Shown in pieces: positions 2,744-7,588 of a DNA stretch of 27,535 nt. A model generated the notes under the pieces. That model ran no database searches. It was not told where the DNA came from and worked only from the letters and a program-made list of their open reading frames with translations. This stretch comes from a virus (taxonomy: Duplodnaviria > Caudoviricetes): IMG/VR virus record IMGVR_UViG_3300033067_001330, positions 1-27,535 of that record. One strand, given 5' to 3'. Every line of letters begins with the position of its first letter. Position 1 is the stretch's first letter. The position numbers were made by a program, and so were the translations under genes.

Positions 2744-2913
2744 CCAGGCCACTAGCCCTCCCCGAGCGTCAAGTGACGGCCCTGTGTCGCGGAGCCGCGA
2801 AAGCCGGCCATGTTGCCGAAGTCAAGATTGGCAACATGGTTATCCGCCTTGTCCCCAAGACAGATGCACAGCCCGAGCGGCCAATTGAATCGGAAGAGGA
2901 TATCCGGCTGTGA
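2740..2913 (+). CDS. Small protein upstream of integrase, possible excisionase/recombination directionality factor (57 aa, absent from ORF track)
   Basis: MTRPLALPERQVTALCRGAAKAGHVAEVKIGNMVIRLVP...EEDIRL; ATGA overlap with the Fic stop; ends 8 bp before the integrase ATG. Confidence 0.6.
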   Translation: MTRPLALPERQVTALCRGAAKAGHVAEVKIGNMVIRLVPKTDAQPERPIESEEDIRL

Positions 2914-2921
2914 CCGAAGGC

Positions 2922-3401
2922 ATGCCGAGAAAGCTGCCTCTGTTTGTCGTCCGCGAACGCTCGCGCCACGGGCGGGTCATGTTCTTCTTTCGTCGTGGCA
3001 AGGGCAAACGAACGAGATTGCCTGATGAGTATCCGTCAGCCGAGTTCGACACGGCATACCAAGCCGCGCTGGCCGGGAAACCCAAAGTCGTCCGCGCCGC
3101 CTCCCCGTCCGACAGGCTGGAATGGCTGGTTGCCCGATTCCGGGAAAGCGGCAAATGGGCAGGCGTTTCCCCTGCCACGCGGAGGCAGCGCGAATTACTC
3201 TACCGCACGGCAATGGCTAACGGGAATCCTCGCTTCGCCGACATCGAAAAGCGGCACATGCAAAAGGCCGTAGACGAGCGAGCGGCCACCCCGGCGCTCG
3301 CAAAGAACTTCCTGAAGCCATTGAGGAATTTCGTGCGCGCCCCGCACCTTTCATCTCCCGTTCCCCTTGGTGGAGGGGTAGGCTGTGATTCGCGGCGATG
3401 A
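2922..3401 (+). pseudogene. int: Truncated tyrosine integrase (N-terminal arm-binding and part of core-binding domain only)
   Basis: MPRKLPLFVVRERSRHGRVMFFFRRGKGKRTRLP..SAEF..AYQAALAG and SPATRRQR..ATPALAKNFLK resemble the N-terminus of rhizobial phage integrases. No R...HxxR...Y catalytic domain follows, and similarity ends near 3330. Confidence 0.8.
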
Positions 3402-3426
3402 TGCTATCTCCGTTCAGAGCACGCCA

Positions 3427-3549
3427 ATGACCCGCCAAGAACAAGTCACCCTCACCGCAGGAGCCGCGATCATCGTCGCGGTTGCTGTCCTGGGCGGACA
3501 TGAAGATGTGGTGCGTTCCGAACCGCTCTATGAGCATGTCGAGAGATAG
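3427..3549 (+). pseudogene. Probable 5' fragment of a small membrane or secreted protein
   Basis: MTRQEQVTLTAGAAIIVAVAVLGG hydrophobic start, then runs into the antisense of the neighbouring remnant near 3497. Confidence 0.35.
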
Positions 3550-4629: not shown

Positions 4630-4848
4630 TTACTTGGCGACCGGCGGTTGGGGCTTCACGAGGCCGGTGACCCCGTCCCGCGTGATGTTGATGCCGAGCT
4701 TGAGCAGGCTTTGCACCAGCACGAGCGCGCCGACGATCTTGACCGTCACGGCAGCGTCGAAGCCGAACACGGTCCAGTCGAACGTGACCAGCACGCCGAT
4801 GATCAGGAAGGCGATGTTGAGGATGTTGTGGAAGAGGTTGGCGTTCAT
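4630..4848 (-). CDS. Putative holin (2 TM, 72 aa)
   Basis: Two hydrophobic segments and a basic/Pro C-terminus, directly downstream of the endolysin; AGGAG RBS before ATG 4848; an in-frame upstream ATG lies at 4914. Confidence 0.65.
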   Translation of the reverse strand: MNANLFHNILNIAFLIIGVLVTFDWTVFGFDAAVTVKIVGALVLVQSLLKLGINITRDGVTGLVKPQPPVAK

Positions 4849-4913
4849 GGCAAAAGGCTCCTGAGGTTGAGGTTCAGGGCCGGGGTCGTCCGGCATATGG
4901 TAGGGGCGCAGCA

Positions 4914-5429
4914 TCAGACCGCTGCCATTTTCAGCGCGGCAGCGCGCACCGACTTGACGCGAGATGCCCAGCCCTTGCCGAAGACCGGCCAGGTGCTCAG
5001 CCCGTGCAAAAAGGCCAGCCGCTTGTCGCAGAGGGCATTGATGACCTGTTGCCGAGGGAGCGCCCGCGCGGCCTTGAGCGTGGCAGGGCCGATCTTGCCG
5101 TCTTGGACCGCGCCGACGATTGTCTGCAGGAAGCGAGCCGCGCGCCCAACTCCGCTGTTCACGGCAAGGTCGAAGACGGCGTAATCGATGCCGTCCGGCA
5201 GTTCAGCGCCGACAACAGCATCCCAATACTGCCGGCGATAGACGACGCCCGCCTGATCGTCGGTGAGTGCCTTCAGGTCCTTTATCGTGCCGGCTGGCTT
5301 CACGTAGCGGCGAAAGGTCGCCAGCGTGACGCCCTTGTTGGTGGCCCCGCCGGGGTCTTTCGGGTTGTTGACGTAGCCGCCCTCAAATCTAAGTACAAGT
5401 TCCAAACTGCGTTTGAAGTTTCGGTCCAT
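4914..5429 (-). CDS. Endolysin, glycoside hydrolase family 108 (DUF847) with peptidoglycan-binding domain
   Basis: MDRNF...EGGYVNNPKDPGGATNKGVT, YRRQYWD, FDLAVNSG, DGKIGPATL, FGKGWASRV; GGAG RBS upstream of ATG 5429. Confidence 0.93.
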   Translation of the reverse strand: MDRNFKRSLELVLRFEGGYVNNPKDPGGATNKGVTLATFRRYVKPAGTIKDLKALTDDQAGVVYRRQYWDAVVGAELPDGIDYAVFDLAVNSGVGRAARFLQTIVGAVQDGKIGPATLKAARALPRQQVINALCDKRLAFLHGLSTWPVFGKGWASRVKSVRAAALKMAAV

Positions 5430-6006
5430 CTCTAGTAACTCCAGTGTTCTGGTACGAGGCAAGGAGCCGGTTATGATTATTGAGACTTGGGGTGCAGTAC
5501 CCGACGTGACTGGATACGAGGTATCCGATCAAGGGCGTGTCAGAACACGAGACCGCCGTGTTCCTTACAAAGACGGCCGTGTAGCCCTATTTAGAGGGCG
5601 TGAATTGTCGCTAATTCGCGGAGCGAACGGGTACATTGCTATAGTTCTACCGCAAGGACGGCGCGCTTTGGTTCATCGCCTCGTGGCAGGAGTGTTTTTG
5701 CCGAAGCCGGAAGGCTGCAACTTCATCAACCACAAGAACGGCGACAAACGAGATAATCGGGCAGAAAACTTGGAATGGGTGACAATGGCCCGGAACAACC
5801 GCCATGCGCGTGAGACTGGTCTCAACCGGCAGCATGGCGAGAATTGCAATCTGACCAACTACGGTGCGCAGCTTGTTGCCGCGTTGAAGCGTGTTCACGA
5901 GCGTTTTCAGTGCTCGAACCGCGAGCTGGCCCTTCTATTCGATATGTCCGAAATGCAAGTCGGCGACATCCTGAAAGGACGGACCCGCGCCCAAGGGTAA
6001 CAATCA
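5383..6006. mobile_element. 624-bp homing-endonuclease insertion carrying a recoded replacement 5' end of the endolysin
   Basis: AT-richer block bounded by the duplicated endolysin N-terminus: original copy at 6053-6007, replacement at 5429-5383; junction in Glu codon 16. Confidence 0.8.
5473..6000 (+). CDS. NUMOD4-HNH homing endonuclease
   Basis: ETWGAVP..GYEVSDQGRVR (NUMOD4), VHRLVAGVF, INHKNGDKRDNRAENLEW (HNH) and a C-terminal HTH; AAGGAG RBS; antisense to the late operon. Confidence 0.92.
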   Translation: MIIETWGAVPDVTGYEVSDQGRVRTRDRRVPYKDGRVALFRGRELSLIRGANGYIAIVLPQGRRALVHRLVAGVFLPKPEGCNFINHKNGDKRDNRAENLEWVTMARNNRHARETGLNRQHGENCNLTNYGAQLVAALKRVHERFQCSNRELALLFDMSEMQVGDILKGRTRAQG

Positions 6007-6053
6007 TCATACTTCCAGACGAGCCTCAGCGAGGCCGCGAAGTTGCGATCCAT
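6007..6053 (-). pseudogene. Stranded original N-terminus of the endolysin
   Basis: ATG GAT CGC AAC TTC GCG GCC TCG CTG AGG CTC GTC TGG AAG TAT GA encodes MDRNFAASLRLVWKY(E), preceded by a GAGG RBS; the frame runs on to a stop at 5907. Confidence 0.82.
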
Positions 6054-6062
6054 GGCAAGCCT

Positions 6063-6455
6063 CTAGAGTTTCGAGCCGGCTTCAAAAAAGCCGTCGATCT
6101 GCTCAGCCGTGAAGCCGAGGGCTGCAAAACCGGCCTGCATGGCCGGCTCGTCACGCTTGAATGAGCCGCTTTCGTTGAATGCGATCTGCAGAAGCTTCGG
6201 CTGCGCCGCCACCCACACGGCGACCTTCGACGTGAGACCGGAAAGCTCGAGCTGGATGAAGAATTGCCGTCGCGTCAGTGCATCCGGCCTGGCTGAATTT
6301 TCCTGCGGCAGATCGATTTCAGGCGCCGCAAAGTCCCTACCGTCATAGCTCCACCCGACGCTCACATCATCGGACGCTTCGATCTCATCGTCGCGCAATT
6401 CGTCCACGACGATGACGTTCACGACCTTGCCGTTTTCAATGATCGCTGCGCGCAT
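6063..6455 (-). CDS. Tail-fibre-associated/assembly protein
   Basis: MRAAIIENGKVVNVIVV..VGWSYDG.F..P and LTRRQF...LGFTAEQIDGFF are motifs typical of genes following tail fibres. Confidence 0.7.
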   Translation of the reverse strand: MRAAIIENGKVVNVIVVDELRDDEIEASDDVSVGWSYDGRDFAAPEIDLPQENSARPDALTRRQFFIQLELSGLTSKVAVWVAAQPKLLQIAFNESGSFKRDEPAMQAGFAALGFTAEQIDGFFEAGSKL

Positions 6456-7588
6456 CACCTGTACTCCCAGACCACGACGAGGCCCTGCGTTCCGGCACCG
6501 CCAGCGGCCGACGAGGACGAGTTCACGCCACCGCCACCGCCACCGCCTGAGCCGTAGCCGGTACCCGCGCTGCCTGGACTATTGGAACCGCCCGAGGTGC
6601 TGCTGGCCGCACCGGGCGCATCGCCGCCAGCGCCGTACGGACCGCTTGCGCCCTTGCCCGCCCTACCGAGACCGGCTGCGCCACCAGCGAGGATGTTGAT
6701 TGATTCGGTGAGGCACCAGTCGCCAGCCTGACCTTGCGTATTCACGTCGCCGCCGGACGCGGTTCCGCCTGAACCACCAGAGATAGAATTAATGGTGGTG
6801 ATGCCGCCGGTCGAGCCGCCGCCGCTGCCACCATTGGCGGTCAGGGTGTTCGTCCCGTCTGACCAAGATGAGTTGCCGCCGTTCCCGCCGGCCGCGCCGG
6901 CCGTGTTGGCGGATGCGGCACCGGCCGCGCCGATTGTGACCGTCCCTGAGGCGATTCCGGTGGCGGAGAAGAACTTGTTCGCGTAGCCGCCCGCGCCGCC
7001 GCCCGAGCCGGACGCCGCCTTGGCCGCCCCCCCAGCCTGGCCAGAACCGCCGCCGCCGCCTGCACCAATCACCTCGACGAAAGCGAACCGGGTGCGCACG
7101 TCGAATGTGTGAGTGCCGGAAGACGTAACGAACGTTCGCTTGAAAAGACTGCCCGGCCGGTATGGCGGCATATACTGGATGCATCGCCAGTTGCCTGCGC
7201 CTTCTGACACCATGATCGCAATGGCGCCGGCTTCCGTTTTGATGTTCGCGGCGTCGGGAAGGATTAGCGACGTGGCGTTGTGCGTCAGGGTCAGCGCAGC
7301 GTCGAATTCGAGGATATAGACCTGACCGGCCGCCACCGTGCCGAGCGCCGTAATGCTGGTCGTTCCGGTGATGTGGACGTAGTTGCCGGTCGCTGCCGAA
7401 AGGTCGGTCGTGGACGCCGACGCGATGTCGGCGCCCTTGAAGTTCGCCTTACCCATCTGGGTGGCGATCTGCGCCATCAATTCCCGGAAGAGGTCGTCGA
7501 TGGTGTTGGCCTGCGCCGTACCCTGGGTCGAAAGAGCGCCCAAAGTCGTGTTGCTGCCGGCCGTTGTCGACCAGTCTGTAACTGCCAT
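6455..7588 (-). CDS. Tail fibre protein with glycine-rich C-terminal domain
   Basis: N-terminal WSTTAGSNT...IDDLFRELMAQIA attachment segment, central ITGTTSITALG module, then EVIGAGGGGG...GLVVVWEY Gly-rich domain. Confidence 0.8.
   Translation of the reverse strand: MAVTDWSTTAGSNTTLGALSTQGTAQANTIDDLFRELMAQIATQMGKANFKGADIASASTTDLSAATGNYVHITGTTSITALGTVAAGQVYILEFDAALTLTHNATSLILPDAANIKTEAGAIAIMVSEGAGNWRCIQYMPPYRPGSLFKRTFVTSSGTHTFDVRTRFAFVEVIGAGGGGGSGQAGGAAKAASGSGGGAGGYANKFFSATGIASGTVTIGAAGAASANTAGAAGGNGGNSSWSDGTNTLTANGGSGGGSTGGITTINSISGGSGGTASGGDVNTQGQAGDWCLTESINILAGGAAGLGRAGKGASGPYGAGGDAPGAASSTSGGSNSPGSAGTGYGSGGGGGGGVNSSSSAAGGAGTQGLVVVWEYR

Follow-up and report, generated by a model that had tools for sequence, protein, structure and literature searches.

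An antisense NUMOD4-HNH element at the start of phage GH108 endolysin genes, most likely a homing element that replaces the gene start

I-HmuI of Bacillus phage SPO1 is a nickase encoded in a group I intron of the DNA polymerase gene. Duplicated gene ends are known from fungi, with Allomyces atp6 and Ophiostoma rps3 as further cases beside those described below. In fungal mitochondria, a free-standing endonuclease ORF can lie between a gene and its partial duplicate, as set out in excerpts of PMC7487136 and PMC6279837; these excerpts concern LAGLIDADG or GIY-YIG enzymes, organellar genes and mostly C-terminal duplications, and one from PMC7487136 mentions a duplication with the N-terminus of atp9. 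For phage T4, passages of PMC2988022 describe seg and mob genes that home without an intron beside an essential target gene and co-convert its flanks. They cut hundreds to thousands of base pairs away, are inserted between genes and, all but segD, are co-oriented, while segG contains the gene 32 promoters, which are signals needed by the downstream host gene. The same passages cover Aeh1 mobE in nrdA and T4 mobA in gene 60, where both halves of the interrupted gene are expressed and reassemble; the string 'duplicat' is absent from PMC2988022. Both intronless homing, in T4, and endonuclease-linked duplication of gene ends, in fungal mitochondria, are already known.

Full-text searches, with most subscription papers outside their scope, did not find the layout reported here described for phage endolysins. 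The accessible parts of PMC4162613, PMC3653736 and PMC12386605 hold nothing closer to it, and those of a phage HEG survey (10.1101/2023.03.23.533998), whose supplements may list such neighbourhoods, hold no word starting with 'lysin'. The accessible parts of PMC12893723 give Acinetobacter HNH and endolysin families without linking them. Here we describe an antisense NUMOD4-HNH gene at the start of a GH108 endolysin gene, a real and recurrent element that is most likely a homing element replacing the gene start.

Anatomy of the locus and comparison with known systems

The window, by which we mean the whole stretch of 27,535 nucleotides analysed, is the late region of a P22-like phage transcribed from the minus strand, with P22 coat, portal, terminase and tail fibre genes. 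Its closest named endolysin relatives come from Aminobacter, Mesorhizobium and Sinorhizobium, pointing to a host among the Alphaproteobacteria; blastn against annotated phages gave no close relative of the region. The initial annotation had proposed that the endolysin start is duplicated 624 bp apart with the upstream copy broken off, and both starts were confirmed on the minus strand, at ATG 6053 and ATG 5429. The upstream copy (codons 1-15, 6009..6053, minus strand), a displaced start that we call the stub, encodes MDRNFAASLRLVWKY and matches the 5' side of empty alleles. The working start, or replacement (codons 1-15, 5385..5429, minus strand), encodes MDRNFKRSLELVLRF and continues into EGGY, with which the endolysin body begins (4914..5384, minus strand; GH108 and PG_binding_3 by Pfam; PDB 7dnp and 2ikb). 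The working ORF is full length at 171 aa, with a Glyco_hydro_108 domain containing the EGGY motif, named as catalytic in an excerpt of PMC13284979, and a PG_binding_3 domain. Each start has its own candidate RBS, as had been claimed: an RBS-like GAGG (6060..6063, minus strand) that overlaps the stop of the upstream 131-aa gene (6458-6063), and GGAG at 5442-5439.

Stub and replacement agree in 9 of 15 residues and in 23 of 45 bases. The reported switch from a GC-rich upstream to an AT-rich downstream copy is evident from GC3 over the 12 codons preceding the Glu position, which is 0.92 in the stub and 0.33 in the replacement, with 0.76 in the endolysin body. As a bare DNA repeat the duplicated start is weak (a 15-nt, 87% two-copy family), and its significance therefore rests on the HNH family and the empty alleles.

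An intact NUMOD4-HNH gene does lie on the opposite strand, running from ATG 5473 to TAA 6000 (5473..6000, plus strand) and encoding a 175-aa, I-HmuI-like protein with a C-terminal three-helix domain (Pfam, PHROG, 1u3e, model). It is flanked by 8 nt on the stub side (6001..6008, minus strand) and by a shared spacer of 43 nt (5430..5472) that contains the HNH RBS AAGGAG (5461-5466, plus strand) and the endolysin GGAG (minus strand). These flanks leave no space for an intron core, in agreement with the initial annotation, and an Rfam search of 4800-6600 returned one chance-level match only and no intron; an intron or other structured RNA in the insert was thus rejected. The 8 nt occupy the register where eight other full stubs have E-G(G) codons and could be a decayed or replaced E-G-G remnant. 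By analogy with the Obolenskviruses discussed below, the element probably reaches past codon 15 through the E-G-G codons to about 5376.

The window protein shares with I-HmuI the NUMOD4, HNH_3 and C-terminal helical domains and a similar length; unlike I-HmuI, it is encoded antisense at an endolysin start and is not embedded in a self-splicing intron core. As with T4 seg and mob genes, neither intron nor intein is involved and the mobile gene adjoins an essential gene, but the putative target is the insertion site itself, within a coding region, and the element carries host codons. Nor is the position strictly intergenic, since in 9 of 17 elements the interruption falls within the coding region, at E-G. 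Like mobE and mobA, the HNH gene has entered an essential phage gene at a site critical for function, and splicing plays no part, but here the upstream piece is a dead stub and the complete protein is encoded downstream. The two host fragments are not both needed as separate polypeptides, the downstream ORF being full length and the stub absent in 6 of 17 elements. An element-linked duplicate of a host gene end that restores the whole ORF is found here as in the fungal mitochondrial type; unlike in those cases, the enzyme is an HNH protein, the gene is antisense, and the duplication is a 5' replacement with a new RBS in the lysis gene of a P22-like phage. Annotation misses this layout entirely because the endolysin looks whole.

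Three minor features of the window may be recorded. Sequencing runs X8, X15 and X17 contain a variant of the spacer that lacks one base between the new RBS and the ATG (5437-5438). An integrase-like ORF (2910-3549, phrog_1) matches over only ~125 residues, ends early and may be broken. A second HNH gene (563-970), of the ordinary phrog_333 type, lies among small plus-strand genes, and no duplicated start was noticed there.

An HNH clade linked to GH108 endolysins

The HNH gene of the window scores above the Pfam cut-offs for both NUMOD4 and HNH_3. I-HmuI (1u3e) is its sole significant PDB match by sequence (E 1.7e-5) and also its sole significant fold match (E 3.7e-6, TM 0.50; model mean pLDDT 86.6). 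Positions N87, H88, N96 and N109 (alignment-query numbering), which we take to be the active-site His/Asn positions, are invariant across 15 sequences and align with I-HmuI. Domains and intact active-site positions point to an I-HmuI-like HNH endonuclease.

In a FastTree phylogeny, these HNH proteins form one clade with support 0.997 (31 tips against 24 other NUMOD4-HNH proteins, the latter drawn from the best 25 of 71 candidates). Twelve tips lack context, and 18 of the 19 with context are GH108-linked. Merging of near-identical loci leaves 17 distinct elements and one exception (L244), so that 17 of 18 distinct clade members with context stand head-to-head with a GH108 endolysin. Scans with the HNH protein and its alignment, in which the best 80 loci were kept per alignment scan, gave at least 243 HNH loci, the window included; 13 of these have the GH108 neighbour head-to-head, and all 13 fall within the best 15 by E-value. 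The HNH gene was absent from all 80 loci found endolysin-first (0/80). A motif scan found both genes in 11 of 13 pattern matches, and a second degenerate pattern gave no contigs beyond those already found. Two loci were excluded from the counts, L083 (an HNH fragment at a contig end) and L331 (a pattern match without HNH).

Named hosts of the elements include Microvirga, Tabrizicola and Acinetobacter. Pairwise identities range over 36-75% for the HNH proteins and 28-58% for the endolysin bodies. On an endolysin tree of 75 tips, the 16 HNH-linked bodies are dispersed, with 12 label changes. The correlation between HNH identity and body identity is weak (Mantel r 0.24, p 0.04) and indicates some co-descent.

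Individual loci show further variation. In L244 (1016-1684; = L327), an antisense HNH gene of the same clade follows a lysozyme that is not of the GH108 type and precedes a small ORF whose start is AT-rich, which may reflect a switch of target by the same trick. In L001 (1985-2007), only ~18 nt separate the endolysin ATG from the HNH ATG and there is no Shine-Dalgarno sequence, so the HNH gene may be leaderless there; the L001 replacement reads E-G-S, as in the Obolenskviruses, its sister branch in the tree. In L323 (1670-1700), the last HNH codons are read antisense from a truncated stub, the nuclease ending inside the displaced endolysin start. L083 (2001-2354) is a 100% identical piece of the window's HNH gene that ends a Caulobacter MAG contig and is fused to unrelated DNA, probably an assembly chimera.

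Stubs, recoded starts and empty alleles

Among the 17 elements, the stub is full in nine, short in two and not evident in six. It is thus not obligatory, and the three states are interleaved on the HNH tree. All nine full stubs break off 7-11 nt past the beginning of the Glu codon and abut the HNH stop, and eight of the nine retain the E-G codons; inserts in elements with full stubs measure 598-643 bp. An insertion inside the catalytic Glu codon, as initially proposed, is disfavoured by this constant junction, which, together with the retained E-G codons, indicates that the element probably brings its own Glu codon. The break in the window probably follows the E-G codons directly. From the stubs, the nick site can be predicted with a margin of about 5 nt. 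Every full stub has a different sequence, with GC3 above that of its replacement in each case. The stub of the window has Trp where 115 of 115 relatives have Leu, and this stub is therefore probably decaying.

Each of the 17 elements has codons ahead of the Glu that are richer in AT than its endolysin body. The difference in GC3 between start and body averages -0.36 in the 17 filled loci and -0.02 in 57 HNH-free endolysins (p 2e-9), although the p-values given in this study overstate independence because the loci are related and the controls (the usable ones of 80 after anchoring and duplicate removal) were retrieved using the endolysin of the window. Across the EGG codons, GC3 rises again. 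Codons for the same residue are spelled differently between stub and replacement in 36 of 57 cases, and amino acid identity between stub and replacement is 0.53 within a locus versus 0.34 across loci (permutation p 0.0002), which makes the replacements look lineage-sourced. The expectation that homologues share both the junction and one recoded 45-bp block thus held only in its first part: the junction is common to all nine full stubs, and a single shared 45-bp cassette was rejected, each locus having its own recoded block.

Empty alleles that are continuous across the site, as predicted, were found in four of eight runs. Contigs in X7, X8, X15 and X17 run from a stub-like start into the body, with joints from 5384 to 6018 or 6019 and 9-10 other letters just before the Glu codon; an exact empty joint was not found in the first four of the eight runs examined. 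The nearest three relatives without the replacement start (79-84% identity) begin stub-like. The wider set of 115 relatives speaks against our reading, 71 being closer to the replacement, 9 closer to the stub and 35 tied, in a comparison made with a query that had the replacement start and in which the Trp deprives the stub of one match. Filled and empty alleles both occur among related phages. These continuous alleles, with a stub-like start followed by the body, and the recurrence of the layout across the HNH clade uphold the two central proposals of the initial annotation, namely a splicing-independent element at the EGG motif and the supply of a new RBS and divergent first codons by that element.

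A contig in X3 joins the AT-rich start and its RBS through 25 letters to a variant of the upstream gene and contains neither HNH gene nor stub. HNH-free relatives with an AT-rich start had been named in advance as evidence against an element-borne start, and this one HNH-free, stub-free allele is such a case in part. We read it as probable nuclease loss because native starts are not AT-rich, although it may instead be a donor allele. Contigs in X2, X4, X5 and X7 leave the window near 5437-5449 and could be HNH-free or carry another insert; X3 alone among these runs is shown to be HNH-free.

X15 and X17 are labelled as RNA, and their insert-skipping joints could be taken to mean that the insert is removed at the RNA or ribosome level, by an intron or a gene-60-like bypass, with the stub as the true start. 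The joints carry 9 other letters and 17 differences over 134 body bases, the same form occurs in DNA run X8, and both runs are marked as probably DNA; they therefore represent another DNA allele, and splicing was rejected as their cause. Removal at the RNA level is scarcely credible, given also the lack of intron-core room and of an Rfam match, the complete downstream ORF with its RBS and the six elements without a stub.

Cultured Acinetobacter phages and a proposed homing cycle

A tblastn search of annotated phages found the HNH gene in 18 Acinetobacter phage records. All 18 also appeared in the lysin search, where the gene is carried by 18 of the 35 phage records with an AbP2-type lysin. Five HNH records were opened, and all are Obolenskviruses with the same layout. 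We compared alleles from five filled, six empty and two unusual phages. Over bases 1-48, filled alleles are 1.00 alike among themselves and 0.66 alike to the empties; from base 49, filled alleles are 0.85-0.98 alike among themselves and 0.87-0.95 alike to the empties. Base 48 closes the codon two after Glu, which is the place where stubs end in other elements. This boundary appears homing-like, since an invariant block on different bodies would be expected from repeated homing.

The two unusual phages, LZ35 and SPA, have a second, unrelated antisense HNH-like nuclease at the same spot before a GH108 endolysin. It is intact in LZ35 (L359:520-1137) and frameshifted and decayed in SPA (L353:460-1280), and the endolysin start beside it is almost native. 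Two or more nuclease families thus use this spot as a hotspot.

An ordinary intergenic homing gene upstream of the donor's native endolysin, placed like the T4 seg and mob genes next to their targets, could produce much of this picture. The replacement would then be the 5' end that the donor already had, and the stub would have arisen incidentally from repair on one side and not as an evolved rescue, an account that overlaps our preferred explanation and differs from it only in the origin of the new start. The six elements without a stub, the higher within-locus identity of stub and replacement, the HNH-free X3 allele with its AT-rich start and the almost native start beside an unrelated antisense nuclease in LZ35 all fit such an origin. 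We consider it unlikely, though to be taken seriously, because native starts in the 57 controls are not AT-rich relative to their bodies and all 17 filled starts are, and because the Obolenskvirus filled alleles lack a stub, yet their recoded block ends exactly at codon 16.

The data were also weighed against passive mosaicism, in which there is no site preference and one old insertion was shuffled by recombination in the EGG-DPGG region, with only viable products surviving. This region is the most conserved DNA of these genes (many unrelated contigs align at 5324-5385), the HNH-body correlation is weak, and the HNH gene of L086 has a premature stop, all as shuffling would have it. Nevertheless, the 15 aligned sequences do not vary at the active-site positions, and most changes are synonymous (11 synonymous and 1 non-synonymous codon between the AbP2 and A72 HNH genes). 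The presence in 18 of 35 Obolenskvirus records, with different bodies behind an invariant 48-base block, fits drive better, and mosaicism is improbable.

Taking together the observed anatomy, the clade-wide association with GH108, the fixed position of the junction, the empty alleles and the abrupt right-hand boundary seen in cultured phages, we favour, with a probability of about 0.8, a start-replacing element. It would comprise a free-standing antisense NUMOD4-HNH gene, a spacer, a new RBS and the AT-rich first ~16 GH108 endolysin codons, likely spreading as a homing endonuclease that would nick uninterrupted genes at or just after E-G-G. By analogy with I-HmuI, the HNH protein would nick empty alleles at the E-G-G codons. 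During repair the recipient would acquire a copy of the element; exchange would take place in the conserved body on the right and within the few conserved bases at E-G on the left, turning the recipient's former start into a new stub. The RBS and codons of the element would restore the whole enzyme, the endolysin would be translated from the new RBS without splicing, and the recoded start would escape cutting. Later, stubs may decay or be deleted, and the HNH gene may break or be lost while the replacement start stays. On this mechanism, a homing endonuclease can occupy the most conserved codons of an essential gene with neither intron nor intein; near a gene start, 16 carried codons suffice. 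For some endolysins studied as antibacterials, it would mean that the N-terminal catalytic segment differs in origin from the body.

On its other strand, the recoded start would form the upstream part of the HNH promoter, which would keep the start AT-rich. A TATAAT-like box on the HNH strand is present in 12 of 17 spacers (8 perfect) versus 5 of 57 controls, and is lacking in the window's own spacer. A promoter overlapping the replacement codons is thus a plausible reason for their AT-richness, beside escape from self-cleavage. TATAAT-like matches occur on the sense strand too in 5 of the 17 spacers, so AT-richness explains part of the signal. No promoter or terminator was found in the window's insert, a scan of L346 gave two promoter-like sites, at chance level, and no terminator, and folding at either start is no better than in shuffled sequences, giving no sign of RBS occlusion.

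A broader interpretation, to which we give slightly less than an even chance, is that one specialised clade of start-replacing homing endonucleases has spread through the GH108 endolysins of alpha- and gammaproteobacterial phages without splicing. The 5' block would be dual-coded, for helix 1 and the catalytic Glu on one strand and for the nuclease promoter on the other; invasions would leave stubs as cut footprints, losses would leave nuclease-resistant N-termini, and selfish cycling would thereby rewrite the catalytic end of the lysis enzyme. If this holds true, conserved coding sites could be occupied in a third general manner, in addition to introns and inteins.

The phage might instead keep the cassette for its own benefit, as a weapon against co-infecting relatives or, through antisense transcription, as a means of tuning when lysis occurs. 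Purifying selection on the HNH gene and the head-to-head promoter geometry are compatible with such domestication, as is a strong hairpin at the 3' end of the AbP2 HNH gene (z -4.35; L346:2000-2055, with flanking A and T runs; Obolenskviruses). This hairpin is not called as a terminator, and a patchy distribution, broken nuclease copies (L086, SPA) and the occurrence of empty alleles in shared habitats are typical traits of a selfish element, which makes domestication distinctly improbable. Should the Obolenskvirus hairpin stop late transcripts, expression of the endolysin would depend on read-through or on a separate promoter. For the homing reading, the cultured phages AbP2 (with the element) and IME-AB2 (without it) make homing directly testable. 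In Obolenskviruses, the element also trims three codons off the upstream gene.
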